A DNA stretch of 64,000 nucleotides. It comes from Phoronis australis (lineage: Eukaryota > Animalia > Phoronida). The stretch lies in contig NMRA01000123.1 of NCBI GenBank assembly GCA_002633005.1, positions 340,364-404,363 of the forward strand, in the 5' to 3' direction. Positions 1 to 55,039 of the stretch are shown piece after piece (the stretch's first letter is position 1; each line of letters starts with the position of its first letter). The translations under genes were made by a program, and so were the position numbers. The notes below the pieces were generated by a model, which saw only the letters and a list, made by a program, of their open reading frames with translations, was not told the origin of the DNA and did no database searches.

Positions 1-1591
1 ATGGCCTTTCGGATAGCACCGATGTCACCTGTTTTCATGGCGTTCTCTATGTTATTTTGAAGACGTTCTATTTCCTTCACATGTTTCCTGAAGACCCCGC
101 TTTGCTGGTTTATTAATGCCTTTGCCTCGGTGATCAACTTGTTATCCGGGTCTATGAACCCGCCATATTGCTTTAAAAACTCTTCGTAATTATGTAGGAG
201 TGCTTGAACGTCTGGTATATTGTTTGAAGCAACAACCCGTTGAAGTTCTGATCTAAAATTCTCACTCTCGATCTGTTTGTCTTTAAGCTTGGATCGTACA
301 ATATCTTCCGATCTGCTAACCAAGGCGTTATTCAGCTGAAAGTTCTCACCGAACTCCGTTGCGATGCGCTTATAGTTTTCTAAGGCAGCATCTATCTGAT
401 TCAAGTCACCAGTTTCCATAGCTTTTTCAAGTTCTCTTCTCTTGTCCTCAAGCTGGGCTACGTGCTTTCTGTAACTACTGCCATTCGCCAGAAGAAATGT
501 ATTGGCTGATTTAACCAATTCGTGAATGGGCTTAACCAATCCCTTGTTTTCTTTCAGAAAGTTATTGTACTTGTGTAAAGCGTCTTGCACTGCAGATACA
601 ATTTGTGTATCAAGAGCCTTTTGGAGATTTTCCTGAAGTTGGGTTTCTAAAGGTTTCAAAGACACTCCTTTCATTCTCAAGCCATTTAGAGAATATTCAC
701 ACTCTCTGATGAAGTCTTCATCTGAACTTATGATGTCGAGATACGCATCTGCGAATTCTTTCAGCTTCTTCAGAGCAATTTCCGACGCAGCTATGTCTCC
801 ATCTTCAGTTGCTTTCATTAAAGACCTCTTTAATTCGCCATGTCTTTTAAGTACTTTCCCAAATCCTGAGCCAATTTGGTCAAGAGCATCGCATGCTTTC
901 TTCATTATGTTCTGATCTGGCGACACAATGCCTCTGTGATCACTTAAGAAGCATTCGTATTCATAGAACGCTGCATCTATTTTCTTCGCGTCACATGAAT
1001 TTATGGCCTGCCCAAGCTTGTCCTTCAGTTGCTCCTCTGTTTCTTTTACGTTGACCTGTTTCTTTTTTAGATCAATTAAACGCGCTTCGGTCCCTTTAAT
1101 CAAATCCAGATCATTACACAACTTACTCATGTCTGGGTGGAGTTTTGAAAACTCCTTTAGACGAGCTAACGCCTTTTCAATAGCAGATATGTCGTTGGCA
1201 TCCATGGCTCCCTGCAAGAGCTTCTTGATCTCAATTTGCTCGCGAAACAACTTTTCGTTTCCAATCCCAGTTGACATCAGCACTTCCATGGCCTCTTTGA
1301 CCAGGGCCTTGTCAGGATCTACAAAGTCGTGATGCTCTTTAGCAAATGCCTCGTAATCACACAGTGCAGACTGAATTGCGGCAGCGTCGCCTGAGTCAAT
1401 AGCATCTTCAAGGTTTATTATCAAGATGTCAAGCTCCTCTTCCAGCCCTGCCAACAGAGGATATGACGCCCTCAGCTTTCGACGCCTTCGCACATAGAAG
1501 AAGGCCGCAGCACAAAGAATGACTACCACGGCAATAACTATAATGGCTGGCCACACACTTCCATTCTCGGTGGCAACCTGTTTCTTGGCGT
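1..1591 (-). CDS. Exon 17 (partial): juxtamembrane segment, transmembrane helix and cytoplasmic ~65-aa helical repeats
   Basis: Acceptor tttgtttcttcag|AC (phase 1). Translation: (D)AKKQVATENGSVWPAIIVIAVVVILCAAAFFYVRRRRKLRASYPLLAGLEEELDILIINLEDAIDSGDAAAIQSAL...IENAMKTGDIGAIRKA. 529 codons without a stop up to the window edge. Absent from the ORF track, presumably because it has no stop in the window. Confidence 0.92.
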
Positions 1592-4500
1592 CTGAAGAAA
1601 CAAAGGATCCGTGATTAGACAACAGAGGAGAAATGTTACAATGTTTCAGCGCATTCCACGGCAGAGCAACATGCATCAAAACGTGGCAAAAGCTTAGTCT
1701 GGATGTTGCTGACCCATCAACGTGATTTCCAAATGTTCTTGAGTGCATTAGTGTCCTGCATCATTTGGTCCACATTAATTTATTCTGGAGTAACCAACGG
1801 TTCTCAAAACTATCAATAAAGTGCTGAACTGAAACACTCGCTCTCGGCGAATAACGAAGTGCCGTTCCTTCCTAAGCAGCTCTGAGAGCTTAAAGTGGGA
1901 GTAATTAAAGTTAATCTGTCTTGGCGAAGGCGGGTGTGCAACGGCTTAAACTGTTGCTGGGGAAAACATTCATGTAACTGTGGTACATGACCAGTTTGTT
2001 TGTATCGACGGAGGTTGATGTAGTATCAGAAAGTGTGCCGTGGAAATTTACAGACCAAGTCAACGAAAGCGCAACCAGCCTAAAATATAGGAGGCCCGAA
2101 TTTTTGAGAATGTGGACCTTTTACCCACTTTGCCAAATAGGAGGGGGGGGGGGCAAGCGAGCCCCCCTGTGTGCGCGTATGGAAAGGCCTCCATTTGTGA
2201 GGAAAACATCGAGATCAGTAGGATTTCAAATGGTACATGTGATTTCTGGATTACGAAATAGCGACATTCCCAAAATATCAATTGTTTGAGCTCTACCCAT
2301 CTTAATATAATCGTTGTCGCTTATTTCATGAGCAAGGCATGCTCACCTTGGCCCCCTTACATACGGTACTATTGAAGCGTCACGGGTACGTCGCCACATG
2401 CTTTGAGCAAAGGTGCTCATCACACCCCCATTGAAACGTCACGGGTGACCCGTTTGCTTATGCTACCATTGATACGTCACGGGTACGTCACCGAAAAAAG
2501 TCATGCTTACGCAATGACGTCTTCTTACGGTTATACAGGACAGCATGGACATGTCTGCGATTTTTGGCAAATGTCTGTAAAGCTATGTATTTTATCACTG
2601 TGACAGTACATATGTTCTGAAAGCCAGTAAAATTTAATTCTTGACTTTTGCCAATTTCTGCTACTTAGGTCACGTGACCTTGCTTTTTTAATAAAACTTA
2701 AAAAGAAAGAGAGTTGCATTCATAGAAAAACAACAAGGTCAATAACCAATAATTTTGTTTGATGTAAGTCTTCAAAATAAAATCACAAAAATGCTGTAAC
2801 CGTTTTCTAAATTATCCTTTGGTTCGTTGTTCTATGCAAATTTAATTTTTTCCTTAAAACCACTTAAATCCTTTTTGAAAGCCCCTTATACTAATTTGAC
2901 ACATTTCCGAGGCGAGGTTCAAAGAACAATGTTTTAGGCACAGTATCTGAAAGTTTTATGTAAATTTGATGGCGCAAAGCTGGGGTCCTACATGCAGTAA
3001 CCTGAAAACCTATATAAACTGAAGTTTAACGCAAGCCCAGATTAGTAGCACCTATTCTCAAACTATGTCCTTCGGTCAAGGCATCAAAATAAATATAACT
3101 TAATGTATAATATGTATAAAAATCTCCAGCTATTTGTTTCTTTCCAGACCTGTGGAAACATTCCAAAATATAGCCTGCTGGTTGTTTTCGAAGCAGACAT
3201 ATTTTGCCACGATCAGATTTAAAAACATGTTAAATAAATTGGATAAACCACGTTAAAACTTAGTCCTAAAAAGAGTTTTTTACTCGAACCCGCAGTAGAA
3301 CTATTAGTGTCATCTACTGCGGGTACAAGACATGGGTTTCTCAGTGCGTGACTGATTTATGCTGTTGCTGATAAGCGCCCTCGAATGCTCAACACACGTG
3401 ACAGTTTAAACTAGAAAAAATTCTTACAGAAATTGGTGATTAGAACTATTTAACTTGGTCATACAATTAAAAAGGAAAATCACCTAATAGTTTCATAAGG
3501 TTGGTAGATTCTGTATTTCACAACCAGAAAAAACATATCTTGACAGTTTCGGCAATCAGCAGCCATAATCCGTAGTTATTGGACGCTAGGTGGCGTGGTG
3601 ATCAGGCTGTTCTATGATTATGCTCGCCCTGTTTAGTCTGAAAGTAATCTCAGATCTAGACGGATAAGAGAGTCATTCTGGTTCAGAAAAAGTGGTTCAG
3701 TCATGAACAGGGAAAATAGGGGTTATAAGTTGTCTAAAATTTGGAACAGCCTGATCACCACGACACCTAGCGTCCAATATCATCGGAAGATGGCTGCTGA
3801 TAAGAGCAGAAAATGCCAAGGAGTCATTTTTTTGTGAAAAAAATCTATTACACCGGAACAAAGAAGCAGTTCACGAAAGGTTCTACAGTTCAGAGTCCAC
3901 TGACTAACATGGTGACTCCTGAATTCCATCTACTTGACTGTGTCACTCTATGATTGACTGAAGCGCTCCTGCACAAAAAATATCCGCACAACGTTTTCCC
4001 CGGAGCCCTTCTTAGCAGAGCTTTGTCCGCATCGGAACGGGGTTATCAGCTGATGAGAAACGATCAAAACAGCACCTCACCAGGAAGTCTAAATTTTTCG
4101 AAGATCGCACAGCAGCCATCAGGTACCATTTCGTAGGGTCGACCCGATTCAAGCACGTGACACTCATCATTTCCCCACTGAGAGATTGAACAGTCTGTCA
4201 TCAATTGGCACAATTGAGCACACTCGTCCGCACTTTTGGCGTCCACTTTCTTAAGATACGTTGAACGCACTCGCTGATTTTCCTGTTGCATAACACCTAA
4301 AATATCAGTTAAGTATAGTGATGAGTTAATCGAACCACGAATTTGAACATGAAAAGCTAACAAAATTGTATTATTCATTGTGGCTCTCCGCAACTTAAAG
4401 AGATGTCAAACAGTTCACCATATACTTTTACCGGTTGTCCGTAAAATGTTGATTTTCTTTTAATGTCAAACATTTTCCTTTTAGTTTCAATTTTAACGAA

Positions 4501-7500
4501 TGAGACCCGTTAATTGCTCGTTACATTTAATCGACGGTTAATTTTGCTCCCACAATGCAAAGCATGTCAACTCATTTGATATGGGAAGATACCTATTCCT
4601 TTTCTGAAAAATTGTGATCTTTGACAAGGCACCCGAGTGACACCTGGGGAGAGAAATCGCCGCAAATGGAAGGGAATCTGTAAATGTTCACCAACAATTC
4701 AACAGTTTAACTTCGCCGACCAAACACTTGTGGCCATTATTTTGCTATGTAGGTCAAAAACTCGTTAACAGTTTCCCTGAGCTCGATTATCTCACAGGAA
4801 ATTGCTCTACGGCTAAATCACAATCAAGGTCCATATTCGAGAGTTGAGTGTGTTACGGTCTAAAACATTTGTTGGTCACTTACCAAACGCCAACTGAATC
4901 TCATATGCAAAGAGTTATGCAAATTAAAAAAGGAATCGTCAAAATCGGACAATGTTTAAGAAGTGTATGCATGTTTTTGTCCGTGAATTTCATGTATTTT
5001 TATCGTTACGAGTTGCGATTTTAAAAACTACAATTTTCAACTGTCAACAGTAGAATAGAATTCGTTATCAAGTAAGCAATTGCCTAGATATGACTGGTAT
5101 TAACTTGAGTCACTTTCAGAATCACTTAGATGAAGTTGTGCTTAATCATTGAGAAATGGTAGGGTTCATCTTAAAACAGGGAGTGGTTACGAAATTTGTA
5201 AAGTCAGTGTTTCTAACCCTCACCTGCTGTAAAGAAGGTTAAAAACTAAAGTTCACACTATGTAATAAAAAGAACAGTATATCATATTAGCCTAGGCAAC
5301 ACAGAAAATTATTCAATATCTAAACAAACCAAAAGTTTGGATATTGGCTGGGTTCTGCTATGTTGAAAATAGGCCAAAAAGGCTAAAAAATGTACCATAC
5401 ATGTATGTACCCAGGTGAGAAATTCAGTAACACAAATGGTGATTGCAAAAGAAATTATTGCCTTTTAAATAACAACATGGTGCTTGTTATCATCAAAGAA
5501 AAATAAATGGGCATACATCATGTTACCATGTGATGCAGAAACAGTGACGTAATGTACGTGCACCCTTTTGTAGTGTACGTACCAAATGGAATTAAAATAT
5601 CATTTGGTAAGTGAGCAACATAGGTCGTAGACAGTTTCCTTTCTTAAAATGTTAGGTTAAAAGAGTGTTTGTCGCAAATGCATTTGTTTTGAGTGAAATA
5701 TTAGCATTTGTGTAGTGTCGCTATAATTTGGCAGTAATCTTTCTCGTATACATGTTTCATTGAAGACACGACTTTGATCTGTTCTTATCGTCATAGTTGC
5801 GCATGCCAACTTCACGTGTTATATTGCATTTGTCATTTCTGATGTGCGTTTCACTGTGAGCTAGTTGTAAACAGTAGCCTGAAGATGAGATGAAATATTG
5901 CATTTTAAATTACGTTACCTACTGATGTTTGGATTTTTATTGCACTGTTGTGCTGTAAAGACAAGGGGCCCGTTCCAACAAAACTGACTTAGCTAAGACA
6001 ATTCCTAAATTTTACTAAATTTTAAAATAAAAGTTCAATTTGTCTCAAAATCATTTCAAGAAAGAGATGTTAAGCTTGATTTAAGTGTTTGACGTACGTT
6101 TTGGCTTAATTTTGACGAATTTACCAGATATGGAAGCTTCAAAGTTTGGAAGTTAAGACAAATCTTAGACTTAAGTCAATAATGAACTTAAGTCAGTTTC
6201 TTGGAACGGGCCCAAGATCTCTAGTTCGAGAGTTTGAAACTAAAATTAAACTCTTAAAAACAGATCAACGTCGTGTCTTCAATGAAATATGTAAACTATT
6301 TGTGTAGTGTATATACTCCTATATTTTAATATGTGCCTATTTTCAAAGTATGGCAGATATGCACATGAATGCTGTGGTTTTTATTTTTCCTCTTTGAACT
6401 GATTTAGTAAATCAACTAACTCTCAGTAGATTCCTAGTATTTAGTTACAAACCTGACATGTCATTGAAATGTAGTGTACGTACCCCAATGTGAACAAATA
6501 CCATGAAAGAAAAATATTACACTGTAAGTAAGCAATTGGTAAGTAATTGGTCACAGACAGTTTCGTCCATTAAAAATGCTAGGTTAAAAGGGTGTTAATT
6601 ACAAATACCATTGTTTTGAGTGAAATATTAGCATTTGTGTAGTGTACGTACCCCTATATTCTAACATGTGCCTGTTTTCAAAGAATGACAGACAGATTTG
6701 CACATGTATGCTGTACTTTTTATTTATTCTCTTTGACTAGATTTGGTAAATGAGCTAACTCTCAGTAGATTCAGTATTTTTTATAAACCTGACAAGTCAT
6801 TGAAATGTAGTGTACCTACCCCTGTGTAGTACGTACCTTCAACCTCTGTGCTATAAAGTATTGCCCACAAGTATTTTTGCATACTGCTGTTCTCATCAGC
6901 AATACTGATATTTCCAAAATGAATCCAGTACGACAAAAAACAAAGGACATAGTCAAGTACAATCTCGCAGATATACCCTCCCTGCTTGTTGGAGGCCAAC
7001 TGGAAGCCTGTTATGCAAATTATAAATCGTTTCACCTGAGACTACATCGTCGTCGATTTCGAAAGCAGTGCAACAAGAATCAGCTTTCATTGTGAAAGTG
7101 CCACCTTCGCCCACAGTGATACATTCCTTCGTTTGGGGATTGAACTGCGCCGCTATGCAACAGACCTCGGCACATATACTGGCGCATTCAGGACCACTTG
7201 AAGTCACGTACGTTTCCGTGTTTGTCGCCGAGTCAAAGGCTGAATTGCCATACGCTTTCATTCCTGTTGAGCAAAACCATGAAAATCCAATGTATAAACT
7301 TGAACAAAGGGTGGGTCCAAAACGGAGCTCAAAAGTCGCCCCAAAATAGACAGACATTTTGGAGATAAAGCGTCTAGTATCAGTATACAGTTATTGTTCA
7401 TGTGACATGAACTTAGAGAGGTGAAAAAACATATAGTCTTGTTTACCTTTTCGAGATTTCCAAATGCCATTCCATGTTGCATTCAGTAAACAATTGATCA

Positions 7501-10500
7501 GAGTCACAAATAGTCAGGACCCGGAAAGTAAGAGTACGCAAAATCTGGCCGTGGCGGCTCTAGTAACAAGTAACGTCACAAACAAGGATCTTCTGTTTGC
7601 TATATTTCCTGATGTTGCAAATTTTCAGGGAATTGAACATTGCATATAGATACATATACGTATACAAAATGTAAATGTACATGTATATGTATGGACATTC
7701 TACGAAAAGTCATCTATAAATACATAAAGAATTGAAAAATGCAAACCGATCCGCTCCTTTTCCTCTTGTTCATAGAGTTCGCAACATTCGTCACTTCTCG
7801 CGGTGTAGTCTCCACCTGGATCAACCACCACACAGTCCAATGTCATCAAATTCCAATGGGCGGCGGGACACAAAGAGCGAACGCAATGTTCTGCACACTC
7901 GTATCCCGTGTCCTTCACAAACGTCTTCGTGTGATCTGAACTAAGAGCTTGTCCGGGTCGCCTGAACATATCTAAGTAAACGAAGCAAATGTGAAAGAAG
8001 GTACCTTTTATCATACAATTGTAAGCCAGGAATTAGACAGGTGCTCAATCTAATACTGGAACGCCATTTGTCGGCTAAAGATGCAGCTTGCCCTGTTTAG
8101 CCTGATAAAATGAAAATCGGTCGCGTGACGTACGTTCTCTGCTATGACAGGATTCCATTTTGATTGGTGCAACTTCAGATTTTTTCATGGAAATCATGAA
8201 AGTCCCATTTTTGATAAACCCTCGTGCATATGTGGAAATTTTGAAAGCTCATTTCAACGTCTGCTAGAAGAACAAGAGTGATCTACGATTTTAGCGAATT
8301 CAACAAAGCAACAGTGGGAAAAGACCGACCACCGAGGACAGTAAGATTGTTAGGAAACATGAGTTCTTAGTTAATTAACCCTTTATCTTTCAGGATATGC
8401 GACAAAGATGCATTAGCAGAGGACAGATCGAGGATTGGTTGATCAATCAGCAGCGTTTAGTAGCCAATCCTATTAAGCGGCAGCTGACGGGGTGGGGGAC
8501 TAGGCATCTCATCAATACCAAAGATCTATAAAATCTTTGTCAATACTGACCTGTAAATGGCTGTTCTTTCTTCGTAACAACAATACAGCAGTCGCTGTTC
8601 ACTAGGTTGTAGTCATCGCCTTCGCCCACCACCAGACATTCTTTCGTCTCCGGGTTCCACTGGGCCACCACACAGTCGCGTCGAGAGCACTGTGACAAAC
8701 AGGCGTGCGATGTTGGGGTCGTAGTCCTCGTTCCCTGGGTTGTTTCAATGGCTTGGTTTGGTAACTTGTCCATACCTAGGAAGTACGGAAAAGAGCAAGT
8801 TCAATAAGCTAACCGTGGTGAGAAGCAGTATAATTAAAACACAGTTCGATCTGTTCAAAACATGCCGGAAAATTGAAACAAATTAATGCTATTAAAGGTA
8901 TGCTCTTCCTTGAATAAACTAACTTGGTTACAGGCGCGAAAACAATTCAAGCCGTATGTTATTTTCCAGATAAATTGGAGGCGCATGAACATTGAGCGCA
9001 ACACAATAGAACTCCATTTTTTGGCCATCTGTCATTCGAAATTGCATATTTAGCCACCCTGACAGTTGTGCAATCTTTTGACACGCACTGGCATGCGATT
9101 TGGTGTGGCAAAACGTGCCCTTTCTGAGGATCTCCACTTGCGCAGTTTTCGAACAAAATTTATCACCTTTTCACCCAAAAACAAAAATGGGCCGCAATGA
9201 CAACAAACGGCTACGTATTGATGTACTGTGCATGCCTCTATCACGGAAATCATTGTCTGAAAATTGTCAAGCGTACTTCACGATATATTCATGCGCAATT
9301 CACGTTCGTTTCCCGCGTTCTGTTTGACGTTATTCGAATAAACAGACAAGGTCTATCCAAAACCAACCACCAGCTTTCTGAATAGACGATCGCATGCGCA
9401 ACATTTCCTGATTTCTGGAGTCGTATCCCACAAATCTATGCTCTACGAAGCGCACACATCGATTTTCGTTATCCGAAAAGGTCAATGAGTGCCAATTTTC
9501 AAACATTGTGAAATTCTTTCGACAGCATAGCTAGGACTCCCGCATAGTTAACAAACATGGCACACACAATACCGAGCAGACTGAAACGTGATGTATCGGA
9601 GCACGTGACACGTACAACATGCGCGCACCCAGGGGGGGCTCGGGGGCTATTTGGCGAAGTGGACAAAAAGGTTAGCCCCAGAGAAACAAAAAGTGCGAGA
9701 AAACGAAACAAAAAGTCCACTAAAAAAAGCGAAAACCCACAATACAGAGCCATGGACGTGGTACCCCGTTTTTTTAGTCCTTCGGTTTTTTGTCGGTAAA
9801 AGGTCCACATCGTCGGAAATTCGAGCCCCCCATACTAAAGGCTGGGTGCGCGCATGTACAAGTGTCGTGGAAGCTTCCTTTCCGCAAGTTTTCGGACATT
9901 TTACAAACAATTACTAGAAATTGTTTAGCTTCATTAGAAATTTTGTATACTTTATTATCACTGAACTGAAAATCTAAGAAGGTTTCGGCGAAGTTGTAGT
10001 CATCCCTCAAAAATGTCACATGACGAAAAAATCGAGCAAATGACGCATGTGGGTTACGAGCGTATCGTTTTGAAGTTGAGGCCCAACTTCTTTATTTACA
10101 AAATTAGGAGAATGGTGTCAGAAAATGACTTTGATTTTGATTGAAAGTAACGAACCAGGCTGCTGTCGTTTGAACTACCAAGTATAAAATATCCAAATTT
10201 TTAACAAGTTGTCCTTATCGTTGAGTCGCATACATATGTAGCTGAGTAGGTGACTGACTAATTCTATATTTACGCGAGCCACAAGTAATGCACGAAGACT
10301 CAAATTTCGCACAAACAGATGCCCTAACGGCACACTTTCATGTCAGACTCTGTGAACAGCTTTCCGATTTCCACTCGTTCAGTTCCTAACTTACAGGCCC
10401 GTAGTCCGTAGCCAGGTGGGGTTCGGGAGTTCGATCAACTCTCCTCACAGAAAATATCCATCTCCAGCACATCCGTTAAAGATGGGATATAGATGGACAA

Positions 10501-13500: not shown

Positions 13501-16500
13501 CATCGCGAATGAACCTTGACCTTGGCGATAGAGTGAGATGTGCGGGAGTTTTGTGACTAGAATCTTCACACATAGCACATTGTGACGTTCAAAGAGTGAC
13601 TGTACAACATTGGTGTCAGTTATTCTCATAAACCAATGAATGCAGATAACACAGCTAAGGCCTCACAAGGTTCGGAACACAAACAGATGTCTTAGTGCAG
13701 CCCAGTTCTAACACTGCCTCGTGTAAATTGTCGCCTATACAATACACCAAACGCATTTGCCTAACAGTCAAAATTTCTTCCTTTCACCCATAAACGCTAC
13801 CGCACTGTTGAATATGATATTTCTACTAGAGGCAACGGTGAAAATAAGGATTTTAATGAACGCACAAAACCAAGAGGGACGTAAAAACTGTGTTACGTAT
13901 TCAGGGATGGCAACTGAACCTTTTCCCGCGCATCAGAACAGGCTTACCGCGGAGAGGAACGTTTAACTGCGAGATCGATACTCATCACTCTCCAAAAGAT
14001 GGTACCAGCAATAACTCTTACCACTAGCAATAGCAATGTACTGACGCAAACGTTTGGCAGGCTGGTAGGGTAAATGTTCTTTTTGCGCAACAAGTTTTCT
14101 TGCGGTGCGGGTGGTGAGTGTCCCGCTCTGGTGGTAAATTCATGTTTTGCTCTCCGTGGTGAGGGTTCTTAGTATCTGAGACCAAACGGCTGGTGTAGCC
14201 AGAAGTGTTCCAAAGGGGAAAGGTGACTCTTATAAACAAGAAACTTTTGTTGGCTACCGTGAAGCATCAAACTGAATGGATACGCAATCAAGGGCACTTT
14301 GGAAACGATAAATTAAAATGAGCTTTGGCCATGGGAGGATCATATAGTATCGTGCAGGGGAACAAGGCCTCGTTTGCTCAGGCTATTCTCATGATGTTGC
14401 CAACGTACCTGCTGGTGGGTTGTTGGCGTACACAGTACAGCACGAGCTGTCTACCAGCTCGTAGTCAACGCCCTCTGGTACAACGGTGCAGATTTTGCTC
14501 GCATAGTCAAACTGAGAGACAACACAATTCATCGTGAAGCACCTCTCATTACACTCAAAGTCTGATGACGTGCTGAAAGTTGTGGCGCCGGACGACTGGA
14601 TAGCTTTGTTTGGAATTCTTCTTACATCTTTAAAGGAAAGAGAGTGCAAGTGCTAATGGTGAAAATGTGCGCGCGATTGGAAATAAAAGGAATGCAGAAT
14701 ACTAGACTACATACAAAGTGGTAAATAGTTGGTATAGGAGTAGAGAACTTGTTTTCAGGCTCTAATATTTCAATGCGCCATTACCATGATTTCATCTCAT
14801 TGGCAAATCCCGGTTACAACGAAAACATACTGATCTCCACCGAAGACAATTACACAACTGCGCGTCAGCGCAGCCGGTTGTCTCAAAGGCTGGGTGACGA
14901 ATTGGTGGACTGCATTGCAGTTTTGGATTATATACTGACGCACGTATCATTTATCTATTATCCGGGACATATGTCGATCATAAATGGTATTTCACTCGTT
15001 AAATATATTTATGTGAGCATATGGACTCGCCTTATTCCTTTTCCCGCTCATCTTGGTCTATTCCATTATTCCCTCGTGCAGGACTACACGACGTTTTTCC
15101 AGCCTTCGCATTGGTCTGTTGTTATCACGTGCCTCGAGTTTGGTCAGCTCTTGGCTCTTATAGGCTGATGATTGTCACGTGTCTTTAGGGGCGTTTTACT
15201 TTGTTATTGTAACCTCGCTTTCAATTCACTTTGTTCCGGCCACATTGTCGTACGTCAAAAACTCATTCAATTNGGCGCCGGACGACTGGATAGCTTTGTT
15301 TGGAATTCTTCTTACATCTTTAAAGGAAAGAGAGTGCAAGTGCTAATGATGAAAATGTGCGCGCGATTGGAAATAAAAGGAATGCAGAATACTAGACTAC
15401 ATACAAAGTGGTCAATAGTTGGTATAGGAGTAGAGAACTTGTTTTCAGGCTCTAATATATCAATACGCCATTACCATGATTTCATCTCATTGGCAAATCC
15501 CGGTTACAACGAAAACATACTGATCTCCACCGAAGACAATTACACAACTGCGCGTCAGCGCAGCCGGTTGTCTCAAAGGCTGGGTGACGTATTGGTGGAC
15601 TGCATTGCAGTTTTGGATTATATACTATATACTATTATTTTTGCGCCAATCAACAAACCCCTCCGGAAGTTCCCAACTCACCTGGAAGAGGCTCGTCCTT
15701 TTTTTCGTAATAAACACAACAACCTTCCTCCCCATCATCAATCAACTGGTACTTCACGCCAGGTGGCACTACAGTGCACTCTTTCGTGTTTCTGTCCCAC
15801 TGAGCTGCCTCGCACGCCGTCTCAGTACAAGCCTTGTTACACTCTTCCTCAGTTTGCGTTGTGGATGTTATTGTCGCCCCAGAACTGAGTATCCGCTGAT
15901 TATTCCTCCTAGTCATACCTGCAAGATGATGGACATGAGGGTACCGGGCATAACTTAATAGCCGCAAAAACGAGTTCCACCCAGGAACCGTTTTTGACCT
16001 AGATCATCTACCACTTACTAAAACTGACAAAACGTCGGGTGGTAAGTAAGATTTGCATGATTTTTAAACGTCATTAGAGAAAAACAGGTGCTCCTCGATA
16101 CACCCTTAAAATGTCACTTTTTACTGAGAACACTACCGGTACTGCTACTCCCAGGTATATGATATCTTCACATAACGTTACAAGAACTGACGGACACACG
16201 TTGGTGTGGCCGGACTCGAAATACTACCTGGGACGTCATTATACACTTCACAACACTCCCATGCGCCCCCTGTCGCTACAATGTCTTCGCCATACTCTAC
16301 AAGGGAGCACCTTCCATTAGTTCTATTGTACACGGCCGTTTTGCATGACGAAGCTTGGCACATCTCGGCACATTCATATCCCGATGACGTCATTATTGTG
16401 GAGTTTTTGCTTGTAAACGCTGTACTCGTCTCATTCTTGCGTATGCCTACAAGATAGTCCTGCGTTATACGTCTACGTTCAGCTTAAATAACGTCAAGTA

Positions 16501-40500: not shown

Positions 40501-43500
40501 AAGGTCTAAGGTCTCAACATTACTCCAGTTACTACGAAGCGAAGGGTTTGTCAAAAATTGGAATTGGAACACTCAGTCACCTGGGTTTTACAAAGATGCC
40601 ATACAAATCCTTGTTCGCAAGTTTTACCATTTCTGTTATACATTAGCATGCATCCGAGATTAATGTCTATTCTGTGGTCCGGTGGATGACTTAGTTGCGT
40701 GCATATACTCCATGACCCCAACATAGTTAGAGATTTTACTTGAAATCTCTAGTTTGGACTCGGCTGAAGTCATTGTTAGAATTGATCTATCGCAAGCTCC
40801 GCTCCCTCGCAAAAAATCGACAAACAACCAATAGGTTTTACCCGACAACGTGTTGCTTGACGGGTAAAATGGCGGTTTGGAAACGAACGTGTGTCAAGAA
40901 TGCTGCGTTCTGATAGGTCAGTTCAGCCTTCACTCAAAATTTTGGCTATAGGTTAATTTAGTGATTTTTGAGTGCGAAATTGAACAAGAGAATCACCTAC
41001 ACAAACCACATAATTATACTCTAGTACAGATTAACAGATACGTATCTTAAGTTTGTATTGGAGTAGAAACCAACCTACCAAAATAGCTTTGGAATTACGA
41101 CGTGCCTCTGACTGAGAACACTCGTACACTGGGTTTTGTACGACGCATGCTGTTATTTTCATTAATGGATACGGTGAGGGGCAATATTTTTGAATGACCT
41201 GGCATAAACATGACTCCCTATCTTACGAAACATTGTGTATTGTTGAACACATCCAGGTTTGTTCATGGAGTTGAATGCAAAACCAACATGCGGGCCTTTT
41301 GCTGATCAATTTATGGTAGGTGGTAGTGTTGCACGGAGAATAAGCAAAGGTTGCCAGTAACTGAAATGGATCGTCTCTCTAAAATAACCAGGTACCTGTA
41401 ATCACAGAATGAAGTTTCGGCTGATATTTGTGACATGACACGCAACCATTCTGCCCCTTGATTTTAAAGCCTGCACTACGTTATACTCACCGCTTCTTGG
41501 TGCTTGGTACAAGAAACGTTTTGGTGTACCGTCAATGGTCATGCCGAGCTTATCGTTTTTCTGACCACAATAGAGGTACGTCGATGAGCTTAAGAAATCT
41601 TTCCTTTGAGGATTTGCAAAGACGATTGCTCCAGCTATACCGGCCCGTTTTGTCTCCCCTGAAACAGTTAAGAGTGGGTTCAGTCAAGCAACAGTTGCTC
41701 CACACATGCACTAGTTGGTCTCGCTTGACGGGTTTTTCGACCAAGTTTTCGAAGAAATGTGAAAGATTATATTTTCACTGTAGCCTCATTTCAAAGGAAA
41801 CACCCCCAGTTCATTTTCAGGTGACTGAACTTTCTGTTAACATGCAAGGGCATGAAGTAGTATTGATAGAATGAATGTTGAAGTCACTGACTCGGTTAGA
41901 ATATGAATAATGTTAAATCTCCTTTCGAGGTCGTGGAGTTTATTGAAACCACTATCCTTCGGTCTCATCTAGAGACCTTCGACAGACGTAAAAATGCAGG
42001 TAACTAGAGCCACACCCGTGTCTGTTACGTCATCGCTGTCACTGATATGTCAAGCGATGTGACCACTACCGGATCGTTGGGAACAAGTTTGGTAGGTAGC
42101 GCGAATATCGCCCGAGCCTCTGTTAAGTGATGGAGCTTGCATCATTCTGCACTTGTATATGTATTTGCTCTCTTTCATTAAGAGGGTAGCATTATCCGAA
42201 AAGATGTCACGCGAAGTCTGAAAACAGTGCTCACCAATCGCTTACACAGAGCAGGTGTTCCTTGATGCTCGTGCCGAGCTTCCAAGCAGTGCCTCATTCA
42301 GACGACACACACCAACTCTTCAGATAATGCTATCATCGTAATAAAAAGCAATTATTGGTACTGAAAAGGCAAGTGGAAGCGGCGAAAATCCACTAAAACA
42401 CGCCATCACTCAACAGTGACTCGGGCTACAATCTTCCCGTCATCTACCACAACTCCATCCCGGCGAATTGGGATCCAACAGAGGTCACATCGCATGGCAA
42501 AAGACAATGATGACGCAACTGACACGGGCGAGTCTCCACTTAATACACCATTCCGTACCCTATGAAGGTCTCGAGATGAGTTCAAAATCTATGGATTTCA
42601 ATAAAATCCATGACTCCGAAAGGTAATGTTACATTATTCCATACATGTTTACAGGATGCACCTCGATATAATCCTTAAATATCTGACTTTATTGTGCATA
42701 ATCCTGAGAAGGATCGCTACATCTGGTTCCAGGGGTCTATTGTACAGACGCAATTACAGTGCGCGCGTTCTCAAAAGAACACGTTAGCGATACATATCCA
42801 TTAAAAATACCCCATACGCGTTAAATAAGTCGAGTGCATTACCGCCATGCGATATTGCATTCCTGGGACTACTTTAACAGTGCCCTATGACAGTGAAAGT
42901 AAAGAGGTAGGTCAATGTCGACTCGACGTACATGTACAGTAGTTAGCGGGTTCGATCATAACACTTTCCCACCGTAGTTTTAAGTAGTACAATTACAGCA
43001 GCATAAAAAAACACTTAACATGCAATCAGGTCCCAAACTTAACATGTCGTACAAAACTGTTAATTATAAGACACTTCTCTTTGTTTCATTTGCTAAATAT
43101 TATATCGTCTTCAACTCAGGCGCCGCAATGTTAAATACTGTTCTTATTTAATTATTTTCAGAACATGTTACAAGTTCAATACAAAATTGACATTGTTTTC
43201 ATATTTTGTAAGAAAACTTTAAGTATGAGCCAATTTCCAAATTATTGGTCTTAACATCTACAATATAAATAAAGAAACTAATTCCAGAAACTAAAACAGG
43301 ATAATAAACTGCATTGTGTCCTTATAGTATTTAATAAAAATAAAGACAATTGAAAAAGTGCAACATGTTTTTTTTTGGTATTTTGCGTTAGTCAGTCAGA
43401 TGGCTCAAAGTACCCCAACTACGGGGCACTTTGATCCAGGCATGGGGCACTTTGATCCACAGCAAAGTATAGTCAACACAACGCATTCAATATCTTAAAA

Positions 43501-52500: not shown

Positions 52501-55039
52501 AGACCATGAGGACTGAATTTCAAAAGTACATTGAATTCGCAAAAATCTGACTTACAAACACATAGGTCTATTTTGTGACTCACGAGTTGGTATTTACTTC
52601 GAGTCTGCTGTGGCGAATCTAGGATGTCGTAGAAAAGGTCCTAACCACACATTTAGGAAGGCAAAGGTCCGCGTGCATTCCAAGCGGTGTCTGAAGGGGG
52701 GCAAACACAATTTTAAAGGAAAATAGCTGCGTAACGACCAGAAACGATATGCTGGCGGCGCTTTTTAGTCGCCCGTGGGGTGTGCATGTGCCCTCGGGAT
52801 CCTTCGGTCCCCTCGTACCCGCCTATGTTATGACACCATAATTGTTACTTTATCTTGAAATATTAATCTAAAATTTCATTGCTCTGCGGACATATGTTAT
52901 TCCGTACGCTTCAAAGACTAATTACACAAATACAATGTTACACAAGCACCGATGTTTCAAAGACTATGTACCCGATACAACGTGCACACATGCATGCATG
53001 TAGGCCTATATATCAGGTGTTCCAAAAGTGAGCCATTTTTAAGAAGTAATTTCTCTACAACGAATAAACTGATTTTTCAAAAGTTTCTTACAAATGAACC
53101 TGAGGATATCATCAACAAATATACAAACTATCAAAGAGATCTGTGTGCAATTGTGCGAGTACTGTCAAATTAAATACATCAGAACAAAAAATAAAATATC
53201 AACGGGAAGCTCGCTTATTTCTGTCTTCTTCCACGACTCAACGGAGCCGTTTCTTCCAACCAGAAAATGCTTTTTTGTATTTCTTCCATCAAGATTTTCT
53301 CCCATGACATAATTATCCTGTCTTTTACTGCTGTTCACTCATTTTACATGTACCTCTCATTCCCCGGTATGGCATAGGCCATTGGATTGCAGTGGGGGGG
53401 GGGGGGGGGGNTGTACGGACGCCAATCCTTCTTTTTTGATGAATTTTGGTGTGGCTTCCTCCATATGAGCCTGAGTTATTTTGCTCGAGTCTGAATTAGT
53501 CCCATTTTGCTGAAACACGTAACTGTTTCCAGAATAAAGTCGCCTGCATTCCGGGAAAACATTTTCATCCAATTACTGCAGTGCATATGCCGTCGACTGT
53601 GAACTTTTGCTCTAACAGTGTCAATAAAATGAATATTTGTTTTTCCTTCCCATGACACTCCAGCGGAAACAAATACATTTTGGAAAATCTGGAAGTCTCA
53701 TGATGGAGTCAAGAAGGCTGAATTTCAAGTTTTCGTTTCCCACAAACAAGATCGTTTCGGTGATTTTTAGCGGTTTCTAGTGTAAAGTCTGTTTCATCAG
53801 TGGAAATAATTCTCTTCACATCAATGGCTGAATAGCGGTCAATAGCTTCATGGAGTTTTTCTTTTTCCACTTGGTTTTGAAGGGTCTCAATTCCATTCAT
53901 TGCACAGAAGACTTGCTCACTTTTAAATCCCTTGCGACTTCTTCCAAAGATTTGTGATTCCCCGGGTTGTCCTCCTGGGATTGGCTATGTTTTCAACACG
54001 ATCCTCGTTGTTTATAAACATGCAGTCTTGGGATACCCACTGCCACATTTACTCGCAACAGACCCTGTGTTGCGTATTTTAGCAATACAATTATTTACTT
54101 CCGCACAACTCCACCCTTTTCCTGGGATCTCCCTCAAGATTTTCCTTCAGCTCCACCCTTTCTCCTTGTAACAGATTTCAATTGCAAATCCATCATTTTC
54201 ACTCAAAGGTACCCTTACTCTAACCGTCACCTCCATTTCTACGAACTCACACATTTCTCTGATTGCTGTTGTTGCAACCAGCTCAAACCGATCGCAAATA
54301 CGTCTGACTTCGTGCTCGCCATGTTTTATCCTGGATCCCATCGGCCACGTTTTGGGGTCTAAGATGCCCAGAATAGAGCAAATGACTGCTCATCATTGCC
54401 TAATCAACGCCACTCAAAGTTCACAACAGCTTGTTGAATAAAGTGTTCAGGGCGTATGGTCACACGTGCAAGAACATTTGCAAACAATGCTGTCGTCAAC
54501 GCAGCAGTGCATCGATACTGTAGGCTATTGTATCAAGCCGCCCCACTATACCGCCATTTACTATGCATAGGTGCTACATTAAGATGTAAAATGATGGCTG
54601 GCTGAGCCTAAGCCCCACAATAATGTACATTACGGTGCGTAGGTGCTACGCTTAAACGCCAAAAGGTGGCTGGCTGCGCCTACGGCCGCCTACACCCCAA
54701 TACAGCACTGAATTAGACGCCCCACACGTTTATAGATTAAGATCCCAAAGAAGGAATTCCCCAACGGAATGATGGTTTGAAAGATGTTGCTCTTTCAAAA
54801 ACAGATTGGAACTCAGTGTAATATCTTACTTGTAATCGGGATGACCTGGACCAGGCTCGTTTCAACAATGGGTTTTCCACCAGCACAAACCTCCAGCGTA
54901 CATAATGGCTTCGATTGGTAAAATATAGATTGCACCGGGTAGCTGTCACGCAGAGGTTCACACGGTATTCTGATAGCTCTCCCTGGCGGTGAGTAGATAT
55001 CCTCCGGAGTACCCGAACCCGATGCCTCCTGATCCAAAT
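1..55039 (-). CDS. Multi-exon gene (17 exons seen, partial at both ends): type I membrane protein, Ig x4 (L1/neuroglian-like) - PAN/apple x9 - TM - cytoplasmic helical repeats
   Basis: Exons, 5'->3': 54830-55039, 41491-41658, 39996-40104, 37752-37939, 32769-32906, 28039-28200, 25828-26205, 25229-25459, 21673-21891, 16228-16446, 15682-15918, 14409-14627, 8551-8775, 7747-7971, 7036-7263, 4081-4296, 1-1591. All have AG acceptors and GT donors. Phases match at all 16 junctions and the joined frame (4963 nt) has no stop codon. Confidence 0.85.
1491..1556 (-). other. Predicted single transmembrane helix
   Basis: VWPAIIVIAVVVILCAAAFFYV followed directly by RRRRKLR (positive-inside rule). Confidence 0.9.
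2065..2175 (+). repeat. Dispersed non-autonomous repeat family; related copies at ~9560-9855 (minus) and ~11648-11930
   Basis: Shared core gcgc..ccagcct....GGGGGCTCGAATTT....TGTGGACCTTTTAC at ~2068, at 9790-9852 (reverse complement) and at ~11716, with G-rich or C-rich ends. Confidence 0.5.
3539..3820 (+). mobile_element. Penelope-like retroelement 3' remnant with inverted terminal repeat
   Basis: 3655-3756 encodes SRRIRESFWFRKSGSVMNRENRGYKLSKIWNSLI, matching the C-terminal end of the Penelope GIY-YIG endonuclease (R.I.ES..I......MNR..G.Y.L...W). 3539-3612 is an inverted copy of 3744-3820. Confidence 0.75.
4081..4296 (-). CDS. Exon 16: PAN/apple-like domain 9 (phase 1-1)
   Basis: gatattttag|GT...CCT G|gtgagg. 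GVMQQENQRVRSTYLKKVDAKSADECAQLCQLMTDCSISQWGNDECHVLESGRPYEMVPDGCCAIFEKFRLP. Confidence 0.88.
5749..6293. mobile_element. MITE with ~35-bp TIRs that hosts a second MITE
   Basis: Left tacatgtttcattgaagacacgactttgatctgtt; right aacagatcaacgtcgtgtcttcaatgaaatatgta (inverted). Confidence 0.65.
5966..6213. mobile_element. 248-bp MITE, PIF/Harbinger-type (GGGCCCGTTCCAA TIR, 3-bp TSD)
   Basis: TIRs gggcccgttccaacaaaactgactta / taagtcagtttcttggaacgggccc, flanked by aag/aag. A second copy in the opposite orientation lies at 36949-37196. Confidence 0.85.
7036..7263 (-). CDS. Exon 15: PAN/apple-like domain 8 (phase 1-1)
   Basis: ttttgctcaacag|GA...TCA G|gtgaaa. GMKAYGNSAFDSATNTETYVTSSGPECASICAEVCCIAAQFNPQTKECITVGEGGTFTMKADSCCTAFEIDDDVVS. 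Confidence 0.88.
7747..7971 (-). CDS. Exon 14: PAN/apple-like domain 7 (phase 1-1)
   Basis: ttcgtttacttag|AT...ATC G|gtttgc. DMFRRPGQALSSDHTKTFVKDTGYECAEHCVRSLCPAAHWNLMTLDCVVVDPGGDYTARSDECCELYEQEEKERI. Confidence 0.87.
8551..8775 (-). CDS. Exon 13: PAN/apple-like domain 6 (phase 1-1)
   Basis: ccgtacttcctag|GT...ACA G|gtcagt. GMDKLPNQAIETTQGTRTTTPTSHACLSQCSRRDCVVAQWNPETKECLVVGEGDDYNLVNSDCCIVVTKKEQPFT. Confidence 0.88.
11120..12455. mobile_element. Decayed non-autonomous DNA element with inverted ~16-bp subterminal repeats, containing nested repeats
   Basis: Degenerate CACTATTCCGAAGGTT units at 11125-11255 (+) and their reverse complement (gaaccttcggaatagt...) at 12390-12455. Confidence 0.45.
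13125..13268. mobile_element. ~145-bp MITE flanked by CWG (second copy at 57813-57964)
   Basis: Shared internal sequence cttatacgccgtatagcaacaatga...gcgtcacgttgtt...aacttatcc...caactcagccc in both copies. Flanks ctg/cag here and ctg/ctg at the second copy. Confidence 0.75.
13330..13760 (-). pseudogene. Decayed non-LTR retrotransposon (LINE) C-terminal fragment
   Basis: Frame-broken motifs AVLELG..., (H)W.FMRITD and LGKLGY resemble the post-RT region of invertebrate LINEs. Confidence 0.4.
14409..14627 (-). CDS. Exon 12: PAN/apple-like domain 5 (phase 1-1)
   Basis: ctttcctttaaag|AT...GCA G|gtacgt. DVRRIPNKAIQSSGATTFSTSSDFECNERCFTMNCVVSQFDYASKICTVVPEGVDYELVDSSCCTVYANNPPA. Confidence 0.88.
14584..15626. 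repeat. 353-bp direct duplication (14584-14936 = 15274-15626) abutting a single N; probable haplotype overlap at a contig join
   Basis: The copies differ at about 5 positions. The second copy starts immediately after the N at 15273. Confidence 0.8.
15682..15918 (-). CDS. Exon 11: PAN/apple-like domain 4 (phase 1-1)
   Basis: catcatcttgcag|GT...CCA G|gtgagt. GMTRRNNQRILSSGATITSTTQTEEECNKACTETACEAAQWDRNTKECTVVPPGVKYQLIDDGEEGCCVYYEKKDEPLP. Confidence 0.9.
16228..16446 (-). CDS. Exon 10: PAN/apple-like domain 3 (phase 1-1)
   Basis: ctatcttgtag|GC...CCA G|gtagta. GIRKNETSTAFTSKNSTIMTSSGYECAEMCQASSCKTAVYNRTNGRCSLVEYGEDIVATGGAWECCEVYNDVP. Confidence 0.87.
18492..18536. repeat. Perfect palindrome, 22-bp arms with a 1-nt centre
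   Basis: GCGATTAGAATTTAGTACTCAA-g-TTGAGTACTAAATTCTAATCGC. Confidence 0.95.
20282..20852. mobile_element. Non-autonomous DNA element (MITE) with imperfect TIRs; a related copy at 47201-50205 is split by an insertion
   Basis: caaccctcgctggttccct...ctagccagcacgtaggtatcac is inverted relative to gtgattcctgcgtgctggcta...agggaactagcgagattg. 20676-20790 matches 47201-47326. Confidence 0.7.
21673..21891 (-). CDS. Exon 9: PAN/apple-like domain 2 (phase 1-1)
   Basis: tttttattgttgcag|AT...CCG G|gtaacg. DMTRVPRRRLNAPRNTTLSTPTGYICALNCHEASCKAAEWDPVIKTCTLVNHGVEIYLTDGNGMCCEVYRDLP. Confidence 0.89.
22720..24420 (-). mobile_element. Internally deleted, decayed LINE (CR1/L2/Crack group)
   Basis: 23280-23645 reads KKIGVLKCISKFVNRVTLKILVTAIIQPHLDNCLPLWGAAS...IQNRAARIIL (post-RT region). 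23062-23310 reads MYKC...YL...F......YNT......LPK. ~23900-23990 resembles an endonuclease N-terminus (KLYSFL...CLIALTAT). CA-rich simple repeats lie at 22720-23030. Confidence 0.8.
24783..25083. mobile_element. MITE-like element with internal degenerate ~21-bp tandem repeats
   Basis: gcaaaaacagttaacagaaaaatcaaac is inverted relative to gtttgatttttctattagctatttttcgc. Periodic TTTGATTTTT(A/C)CG units lie between them. Confidence 0.5.
25229..25459 (-). CDS. Exon 8: PAN/apple-like domain 1 (phase 1-1)
   Basis: ataacaaaag|GT...CCG G|gtgaga. GIRRRKNSKLNVQEVTRVLTVSPGECAQTCAESWCEAAQWQLNTSECLMVPLGVHIQPITGDAECCEVFLKKENLFP. Confidence 0.87.
25828..26205 (-). CDS. Exon 7: complete I-set Ig domain (L1/neuroglian/contactin Ig6-like)
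   Basis: tttttttgttcag|AG...GAA G|gtaagg. EPMEW...VEQGNSVKLKCEAKVDPDEKLTTRWFLN...SVLTIDI...YDGTYTCMVTAV. Has B-strand Cys, C-strand Trp, DxGxYxC-type motif and the C.A.vDP signature. Confidence 0.9.
28039..28200 (-). CDS. Exon 6: second half of Ig4-like domain
   Basis: tttttctacaactcag|GG...ATG G|gtgagt. (W)PPISDVVPAGPQDSVVIQGTKMEFRNLRKSWVIQCALENALGYRTRTATINYM; the V.QC...N..GY.....N motif is typical of L1-family Ig4. Confidence 0.85.
29308..30210. mobile_element. Non-autonomous DNA transposon with short TIRs and inverted subterminal GC-rich repeats
   Basis: gggtttgtcaaaaa ... tttttgaacaaaccc. ccctcgac/ccacaacccctcgac units at 29460-29510 are inverted relative to gtcgaggggttgtgg units at 30140-30185. 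Confidence 0.55.
30875..31875. mobile_element. Long-inverted-repeat element enclosing a decayed (Y)MFEP/Cys ORF
   Basis: 30880-31040 is an imperfect inverted copy of 31695-31872. Internal 31195-31355 reads MAGVGDEEFFHEQSVSGDMFEPN...RLCANAQCALL. Confidence 0.55.
31430..31637. repeat. Dispersed repeat, probably a hAT-like end (CAGTGCTG terminus); second copy at ~54500-54710
   Basis: acggtgcgtagg(c/t)gctacg...gccaaaaggtgg(t/c)tggctgcgcctacg...gcctac...acagcactg is present in both places. Confidence 0.65.
32769..32906 (-). CDS. Exon 5: first half of Ig4-like domain
   Basis: ctcttccttgcag|AT...CAC T|gtaagt. (H)PPTFLNGEPKDINTTKGGHVILRCEAAPTHPQTSLPMWYINAIRH. Not in the ORF track. Confidence 0.87.
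35781..35965. mobile_element. Short fold-back element (~75-bp TIRs) inserted in the Gypsy element
   Basis: atgaaatagt...actagtaaaa...gacgagcgtcggtactaaaatata...ccccacgtt, with its inverted copy at 35890-35965. Confidence 0.8.
36949..37196. mobile_element. 248-bp Harbinger-type MITE (copy of 5966-6213) nested in the Gypsy element
   Basis: GGGCCCGTTCCAA TIRs, TSD cag/cag. Confidence 0.85.
37752..37939 (-). CDS. Exon 4: second part of Ig3-like domain (phase 2-1)
   Basis: ccattttccag|T CCT...AGG C|gtaagt. (D)PTPKVKRWEYPPRLDMSKMKDGVLPNSKVFIDAGSNHEGTYTACAVFFYKYETCGQFNVKVR. The phase-2 acceptor matches the phase-2 donor of exon 3. Confidence 0.85.
39996..40104 (-). CDS. Exon 3: first part of Ig3-like domain (phase 1-2)
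   Basis: cctttattacag|AC...GGA GA|gtaagt. (D)VVTNTPRLLYPDGDEQSNVEVDAGEDFILKFIFVG; P.LLY....G..L.L..IF.G.P.P is the L1/neuroglian Ig3 pattern. Confidence 0.85.
41491..41658 (-). CDS. Exon 2: second half of Ig2-like domain
   Basis: ttaactgtttcag|GG...AGC G|gtgagt. (R)ETKRAGIAGAIVFANPQRKDFLSSSTYLYCGQKNDKLGMTIDGTPKRFLYQAPRS; G..F.N....D......C...N..L.....G is the L1-family Ig2 pattern. Confidence 0.82.
41905..42640. mobile_element. MITE with ~130-bp imperfect TIRs
   Basis: cctttcgaggtcgtggagtttattgaaacca...ctcatctagagaccttc...cccgtgtctgttacgtcatc is inverted relative to gatgacgcaactgacacggg...gaaggtctcgagatgag...ggatttcaataaaatccatgactccgaaagg. Confidence 0.65.
43400..44170 (-). mobile_element. 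pogo/Fot1-like DNA transposon remnant with C-terminal PHD finger
   Basis: 43600-43745 (minus) reads YCLI*NEQYVEPIAEDWIQCKTCLDWAHEACTSYIGVRDVRCDSCLD. Repeated GGGGCACTTTGATCCA / TGGCTCA(A/T)AGT(G/A)CCCC subterminal motifs at 43400-43460 and 44120-44160. Confidence 0.65.
45061..46335. mobile_element. DNA transposon copy 1 (GGGGCTATTCGGA TIR, AT target duplication), deleted and gapped
   Basis: at|ggggctattcgga ... tccgaatagcccc|at. Colinear with 47327-50139 but lacks ~47822-48823. Contains the N gap. Confidence 0.8.
46007..46124. other. Assembly gap (118 N)
   Basis: Run of n. Confidence 1.
47327..50139. mobile_element. DNA transposon copy 2 (GGGGCTATTCGGA TIR, AT target duplication) carrying a decayed YqaJ-like exonuclease gene; ISL2EU-like
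   Basis: at|ggggctattcgga ... tccgaataatccc|at. Minus strand 49000-49410 reads TPVVLHDTMYISVAVVKCETQ*AVTIRQRASGLFGYEDELYLTAT, then VQG*ILGTKRVK*YAVVFTFKDL and HVPKLDF.YKRFY, which are YqaJ/lambda-exonuclease motifs. Confidence 0.75.
53013..54310 (-). mobile_element. Tc1/mariner-superfamily transposon (maT/DD37D-like), pseudogenised
   Basis: Frame-broken transposase: AIEICYKEKGWS..., IRNTGSV, IISTDETDFTLE...NHRND, SWEGKTNIHFID...KV, YVFQQNG...SKITQAHM...FIKK. Terminus TA|TCAGGTGTTCCAAAA at 53011. Confidence 0.85.
54830..55039 (-). CDS. Exon 1 (first one found): first half of Ig2-like domain
   Basis: attttcgttgcag|AT...ACA A|gtaaga. LDQEASGSGTPEDIYSPPGRAIRIPCEPLRDSYPVQSIFYQSKPLCTLEVCAGGKPIVETSLVQVIPIT; G..l.lPC.P...SYP...If is the L1-family Ig2 pattern. 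Confidence 0.82.

Follow-up and report, generated by a model that had tools for sequence, protein, structure and literature searches.

Immunoglobulin, PAN and helical-repeat modules predicted to be joined in one RNA-supported gene, a candidate exon-shuffled receptor

Domain shuffling is common in invertebrate receptors. The L1 family is defined by six Ig domains, FN3 repeats and a tail with an ankyrin motif, and LAD-2, described as a non-canonical L1 protein whose divergent tail is without this motif, provides a precedent for a changed cytoplasmic end (PMC2213605). Contactins share the Ig1-4 horseshoe (PMC10084454), and hemolin, which is akin to neural adhesion molecules, is described as recognising microbes (PMC9163686). 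PAN domains serve in binding between proteins or between proteins and carbohydrates, and the secreted protein FREP1 (Bg179) of Biomphalaria glabrata, treated in the same source, combines PAN/apple, IgSF and fibrinogen domains (PMC7588048). Hydractinia Alr proteins are described as divergent single-pass IgSF proteins (10.1101/2022.03.04.482883), and a gene combining PAN and C-type lectin domains has also been described (PMC13712769). Here, a 64-kb stretch of DNA, referred to as the window, was found to carry an RNA-supported gene in which the head, stalk and tail of an adhesion receptor all appear to be swapped: the Ig head is trimmed and diverged, a PAN array built by exon duplication forms the stalk, and an orphan repeat domain forms the tail.

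The composition of the window (41% GC, spliceosomal introns and repeats) is that of animal genomic DNA, and most of it is occupied by this gene on the minus strand. Nineteen exons, running from 57301 to 1 (Table 1), join into 1,799 codons with no stop, while the remaining two frames of the joined exons hold 105 and 110 stops. Each of the 18 introns has GT-AG ends, and the joined frame is open at both ends of the window. The domain order is one Ig half, three two-exon Ig-like domains, one single-exon Ig domain, ten PAN domains and one exon for the predicted TM helix and tail. An earlier note on this DNA had reported 17 exons in one stop-free frame of ~1650 aa, with four Ig and nine PAN domains. 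The single frame and the GT-AG introns were reproduced, and the counts were revised to 19 exons and 1,799 aa; without an added Ig half-exon of 70 aa and one PAN domain of ~75 aa, the length falls to ~1,650 aa. Its Ig exons were recovered, the extra half-exon (57301-57090) lying beyond its range, and its nine PAN domains became ten, all of them matched by Pfam PAN_1.

Table 1. Exons of the gene model, listed from the 5' end of the minus-strand transcript.
Feature	Position	Strand	Support and remarks
Ig1b, second half of first Ig	57090..57301	-	phase 2-1; Pfam I-set E 2e-4; acceptor 9.2; predicted exon
Ig2 first half, two-cysteine insert	54830..55039	-	predicted exon; open frame, GT-AG; acceptor 7.8
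Ig2 second half	41491..41658	-	predicted exon; frame, GT-AG; splice scores 9.5 and 8.1
Ig3 first half, without B-strand cysteine	39996..40104	-	predicted exon; phase 1-2
Ig3 second half (Ig3b)	37752..37939	-	donor RNA-confirmed; 37752>32906, 6 and 8 reads
Ig4 first half (Ig4a)	32769..32906	-	RNA joints on both sides; Pfam Ig_2 E 0.043
Ig4 second half (Ig4b)	28039..28200	-	RNA joints, 7/12 and 11/8 reads
Last Ig, single exon, L1/neurofascin Ig6-like	25828..26205	-	Pfam Ig_3 E 4e-4; RNA joint to PAN1
PAN domain 1	25229..25459	-	Pfam PAN_1, RNA, open frame
PAN domain 2	21673..21891	-	Pfam PAN_1, RNA, open frame
PAN domain 3, net charge +6	18591..18815	-	Pfam PAN_1, RNA
PAN domain 4	16228..16446	-	Pfam PAN_1, RNA
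PAN domain 5, PAN fold modelled	15682..15918	-	Pfam PAN_1, RNA, AlphaFold2
PAN domain 6, two alleles at 3' end	14409..14627	-	Pfam PAN_1, RNA
PAN domain 7	8551..8775	-	Pfam PAN_1, RNA
PAN domain 8	7747..7971	-	Pfam PAN_1, RNA
PAN domain 9, seventh cysteine in window	7036..7263	-	Pfam PAN_1, RNA
PAN domain 10	4081..4296	-	Pfam PAN_1, RNA; donor 9.9; predicted joint to TM exon
TM helix, basic stop-transfer run, 493+ aa tail	1..1591	-	hydropathy, repeat alignment, RNA depth; extends past window

Alternative acceptors at 55123 (score 4.0, compared with 7.8 at 55039) and at 28233 (scoring below 28200, which is backed by RNA) were rejected. Upstream of the first exon, a scan of splice sites and frames up to 64000 gave no convincing candidate for an Ig1a or signal-peptide exon. 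A hydrophobic frame in an old inverted repeat pair (58244-58729 and 60868-61367, 66% over 520 bp) was discarded as a mimic of a signal peptide that stems from the repeat. The 13-kb intron between the two halves of Ig2 contains an assembly gap of 118 N (46007-46124) that could hide an exon. Searches of the window for tRNA and Rfam matches returned none. Further repeats were noted. A MITE-like element of 250 bp is present at 5965-6213 and 36949-37197 (92% identical, mutually inverted, with terminal inverted arms of ~32 nt) and collects many RNA reads on both strands. We take broken frames at 53360-54390 to be akin to Tc1/mariner transposase and degraded frames at 35100-36700, which enclose a 70-nt inverted repeat (35777-35969), to be akin to a retrotransposon integrase region (no Pfam match at E 0.01 in either case); a frame at 23283-23660 resembles, as we take it, a LINE reverse transcriptase protein in its C-terminal part (no Pfam match).

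Three raw-read RNA runs with the same species label (X1, X2 and X3) were mapped on 1-19000 and 18560-38500, and a contig set with this label (X4) was mapped on 1-19000; the four 5'-most introns fall outside both stretches. Thirteen of the 18 introns, from 37752 through 4296, were seen directly in X1 and X2, with read counts (X1/X2) of 6/8, 7/12, 11/8, 10/12, 3/7, 5/4, 11/8, 17/13, 16/15, 12/9, 13/17, 17/15 and 5/8. The spliced RNA showed CT..AC ends with first mates on the plus strand, corresponding to a minus-strand transcript. The claim that the Ig exons and the PAN array belong to one gene was borne out by the joint between them (25828>25459), a junction singled out earlier for a check by RNA and crossed by 22 reads (10 in X1 and 12 in X2). 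In X3, no junction reads and essentially no exon depth (~0) were obtained over the same two stretches, compared with an estimated exon depth of 6-27x in X1 and X2, and the Ig, PAN and TM exons followed a common on/off pattern over the three runs. The X4 contigs contained two PAN joints only. The gene is real, spliced and expressed, and its expression is restricted, being present in two of the three RNA samples.

While RNA supported 13 of the 18 joints, including that from Ig to PAN, the joint from PAN10 to the TM exon (4081>1591) was absent among the best 15 of the 33 junctions of stretch 1-19000. This absence would suit a pair of genes or isoforms, namely a secreted protein of Ig and PAN domains that stops behind PAN10 and, next to it, a signal-anchored protein made of the helical repeats; likewise, an open frame with a methionine extends 5' of the TM exon as far as 1760, and in X2, but not in X1, same-strand intronic depth (2.13) was found at 3171-3804. 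This depth could come from a repeat, from a minor exon or from unspliced transcripts. The absence of the joint is, however, uninformative, because the remaining junctions rank below ~13 reads and true joints elsewhere have 9-10 reads. Moreover, the donor at 4081 and the acceptor at 1591 are strong and match in phase, no polyA-like signal was found within 1.2 kb downstream of PAN10, X1 depth is zero at 2537-3804 in the intron between PAN10 and the TM exon, and the TM exon shares the pattern of the other exons, being expressed in X1 and X2 and absent in X3. Given these splice sites and the matching depth and sample pattern, we infer that PAN10 is spliced to the TM exon and consider the arrangement in two genes or isoforms highly improbable. 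Reads were also found over the ends of stretch 1-19000 (14 and 18); since the 19000 end is intronic, the end-crossing reads make it likely that the transcript extends beyond base 1. Taken together, Ig domains, ten PAN domains, a TM helix and a helical-repeat tail almost certainly form the architecture of one gene.

In the array, Pfam PAN_1 matched all ten exons (E 1.3e-7 to 0.03), four of them above the curated cut-off. Six cysteines are invariant among the exons, with an adjacent CC pair ahead of the last strand, and the pairwise identity is 16-44%. The six-cysteine pattern, which was derived from these same exons, occurred ten times, always on the minus strand, and in none of 30 shuffles. 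All PAN exons are symmetric with phase 1-1, which is what exon shuffling needs, and this supports the origin by shuffling that had been proposed in the earlier note. PAN1-3 are about neutral or basic in net charge and PAN4-10 acidic. One of the ten domains, PAN5, was folded with AlphaFold2 from the ten-copy alignment (pLDDT 85). The model resembled plasminogen (Z 10.1, rmsd 2.3 over 74 residues), the TgMIC4 lectin domain (Z 9.4), the apple domains of factor XI/kallikrein (9.1) and SML-2 (9.0); a TM-score of 0.71 was obtained with the HGF N domain in a search in which no match reached E 0.001. As judged from this model, the PAN fold is confirmed; a structure check by AlphaFold had been suggested in the earlier note. 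A word-indexed protein search with the PAN alignment gave no relative among 4,709 candidates, which is weak evidence. Beside a single N at 15273, a direct duplicate of 353 bp (14584-14936 and 15274-15626, 98.6%) includes the PAN6 acceptor and the first 44 bases of the exon and is possibly an artefact of an assembly join.

The Ig region is more diverged. Pfam recognises three of the five Ig-like domains, through the halves at 57301 and 32906 and the exon at 26205; for the 55039/41658 and 40104/37939 pairs and the half at 28200, no Pfam or relevant PDB match was obtained, and the sole match of Ig3b was a spurious one to a repeat protein (E 4e-8). For the last Ig domain, the top PDB match was neurofascin Ig6 (residues 522-548, whole-chain E 0.079), with 9.9 bits for Ig6 and at most 0.8 for other neurofascin domains. 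Contactins top the PDB list of Ig1b (E 1e-6, summed over domains), for which hemolin was insignificant (E 0.34), and DCC and contactin-1 lead among the Ig proteins matched weakly by Ig4a. A word-indexed protein search, whose reach is small here, gave no relative of Ig1b among four candidates. When the five joined Ig domains were cross-aligned, D4-D5 was clearly above shuffles (2/500), and D2-D4 stood at 15/500.

The split-exon layout, phases and short motifs of Ig2, Ig3 and Ig4 resemble, as we take it, those of L1. The four Ig domains counted earlier presumably correspond to Ig2, Ig3, Ig4 and the Ig6-like domain, and not to the Ig1-4 horseshoe. In the RNA, Ig4b is followed at once by the Ig6-like exon (28039>26205; 11 and 8 reads), and frames, splice sites and RNA reveal no Ig5 exon between these positions, so that the L1 Ig5 seems to be lost. 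Furthermore, Ig3 is without its first cysteine, and Ig2 is without its tryptophan and has a two-cysteine insert; because of the missing cysteine and tryptophan, L1-style homophilic binding may be gone. The L1/neuroglian descent claimed in the earlier note finds faint support in neurofascin Ig6 as the best match of the last Ig domain (E 0.079), and contactins lead Ig1b; from sequence comparison, the Ig part probably descends from L1. In the last Ig exon, an extra A in a six-A run (25872) was found in four of 15 X2 reads and none of 12 X1 reads, as slippage or a frameshift allele.

The last exon in the window encodes one predicted TM helix (hydropathy 3.08) with a basic run behind it. N-terminal to the helix lie all cysteine-rich domains and seven of the eight N-glycosylation sequons. 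The tail comprises at least 493 aa. Seven complete repeats of ~65 aa and part of an eighth are present in the window, and they are 15-43% identical. Odd repeats resemble odd ones (27.6%) and even repeats even ones (26.1%) more than odd resemble even (19.9%), which suggests that the tail is built of a two-repeat unit with two alternating types. AlphaFold2 with a single sequence gave an all-helical model (pLDDT 72, pTM 0.31) that does not fix the packing of the repeats. The best Pfam match, TPR_Slam, reached 30.8 bits, below the cut-off of 35.2, Foldseek gave no match at E 0.001, and the best Z of a second fold search (9.2) is within the range common for helical bundles; accordingly, no clear family was obtained in Pfam, NCBIfam, PDB (repeat profile) or the two fold searches. 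No relatives of the tail were found among metagenome contigs or, as weak evidence, among 7,993 candidates of 929-2,650 aa in a word-indexed protein search.

A phmmer search of 1,835,955,588 cluster representatives with the tail gave one match (P0001, E 6e-4). P0001 is an uncultured bacterium protein (L001:5001-7496) with eight near-identical 68-aa helical repeats, in a singleton cluster, and the match covers 33 columns of one helix pair (hhalign 91%, reversed control 0.1%). It was rejected as a relative and is taken as probably convergent rather than as a sign of gene transfer, being picked from 1.8 billion sequences; its E-value is distrusted because repeat proteins inflate E-values, as in the spurious match mentioned above. 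Judged by these searches, the tail appears to consist of orphan helical repeats with no convincing database relative. Within the 493 aa in the window, neither ITIM, full ITAM or NPxY motifs nor a catalytic, TIR, death or kinase domain were found; eight YxxPhi matches are present and may be due to chance. A FIGQY-like or YRSL ankyrin motif was not found in the window, the extreme C-terminus lying beyond it, and this C-terminal part may hold a signalling domain.

Ten exonic single-base differences, seven of them non-synonymous, are among the variants listed, which are a selected subset (658 and 53 further variants stand outside it) and compare other individuals with the assembly. They are too few to show balancing selection. 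The proportion of non-synonymous changes would suit recognition no less than simple adhesion. One of the differences replaces the unusual seventh cysteine that PAN9 has in the window by glycine in RNA (18/18 and 6/6 reads). At the 3' end of PAN6, two alleles are found in X1 (supported by 12 and 7 reads) and X2 (by 9 and 8), which differ at five of nine bases, read as three residues.

We consider the gene to encode a new exon-shuffled IgSF receptor that would combine known extracellular modules and an orphan tail in a known process, likely as a tissue-specific adhesion or recognition receptor. On balance we favour a type I surface receptor, from a spliced and sample-restricted gene, by which a cell would be held to its neighbour or to matrix; that adhesion or attachment is its main role is put forward tentatively. 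An L1-type gene would have been duplicated and would then have lost Ig5 and the FN3 stalk; a phase 1-1 PAN exon would have been taken in and copied ten times, long ago to judge from the 16-44% identity, and a new single-exon TM-plus-tail would have been gained. The PAN array may bind glycans or proteins via many weak sites and hold the divergent Ig head off the membrane, and the tail, where L1 has its ankyrin-binding one, may offer cortical or adaptor proteins a scaffold of helical repeats.

The same architecture would also suit pattern recognition by a receptor on immune or barrier cells, with PAN domains that bind glycans from microbes or parasites, a hemolin-like Ig head and a tail to which adaptors for uptake or signalling are recruited. 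Hemolin, as kin of neural adhesion molecules that recognises microbes (PMC9163686), and the snail FREP described as combining PAN, IgSF and fibrinogen (PMC7588048) speak for this, as do the likeness of PAN5 to parasite lectin PAN domains (Z 9.0-9.4), the divergent Ig domains, the 7/10 non-synonymous variants among those listed and the eight YxxPhi-type motifs. We regard it as somewhat unlikely: a common fold says nothing of the ligand, absence from one of three runs means restricted expression rather than immunity, and the 493 aa contain no ITIM, full ITAM, TIR, death or kinase domain. A locus for gamete recognition or allorecognition, with an ectodomain varying between individuals, would account for the orphan status, the on/off expression between runs and the PAN6 end alleles shared by X1 and X2, and Hydractinia Alr proteins are likewise described as divergent single-pass IgSF proteins (10.1101/2022.03.04.482883). 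This is distinctly improbable, given ten exonic differences among the variants listed for exons below 38500, no hypervariable domain in the RNA-mapped exons (the N-terminal Ig exons lie outside) and no paralogue of the gene in 64 kb, compared with a cluster of 41 Alr genes. It is doubtful, too, whether the protein is the founding member of a new class of invertebrate recognition receptor, with a neural-adhesion Ig head, a ten-PAN multivalent lectin stalk and a new ankyrin-free helical tail that signals or anchors, and with the task of telling self from non-self, or of recognising gametes or symbionts, within one tissue. If the descent from L1 is true, the gene would show that hemolin is not the only path by which a neural adhesion molecule gave rise to a new recognition protein but that there is a second one, and its tail would define a new cytoplasmic repeat family.

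The absence of a named family with this architecture, asserted in the earlier note, agrees with our protein and literature searches. Ig domains with a PAN array and a TM helix were not found described in the full texts searched, which include few subscription papers and no supplements (domain tables of genome papers could list such proteins), and the word 'apple' does not occur in the accessible text of PMC11999971. With the L1 family (L1CAM, neurofascin, NrCAM, neuroglian and SAX-7) the protein shares a predicted single-pass layout and tandem N-terminal Ig domains, the last being nearest to neurofascin Ig6. L1 and LAD-2 have six Ig and five FN3 domains, whereas here five Ig-like domains are in the window (the N-terminus lies beyond) and there is no Ig5 exon. 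Where L1 has its FN3 stalk, all ten exons are PAN and no FN3 domain was found in the window, just as the earlier note had proposed. Its view that repeats replace the short L1 tail also appears to hold: the tail has 493+ aa, compared with 40 aa in LAD-2, and shows no FIGQY-like motif in the window. We do not regard the protein as an L1-family member, because of the apparent loss of Ig5, the missing first cysteine of Ig3 and the lack of FN3 domains and an ankyrin motif in the window. Contactins, which are the best PDB match of Ig1b and a weak match of Ig4a, carry FN3 repeats and a GPI anchor; unlike them, the protein has PAN domains, a predicted TM helix and a long tail. Hemolin has four Ig domains and neither PAN domains nor a long tail, and its likeness lies in the redeployment of an Ig protein for recognition. 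No Pfam match to a fibrinogen or C-type lectin domain, the mark of FREP and VIgL proteins, was obtained in the exons scanned. FREP1 (Bg179) is the sole described animal protein with PAN and Ig domains that was found and is the nearest known; as far as its description goes, it has one PAN, one IgSF and a fibrinogen domain, with no mention of a PAN array or helical-repeat tail. The PAN/apple arrays of plasminogen/HGF (N domain), factor XI, prekallikrein, TgMIC4, SML-2 and leech LAPP have the same fold (Z 7.4-10.1); compared with these, the array described here has the CC pair and ten copies and is predicted to be membrane-bound, beneath an Ig head.
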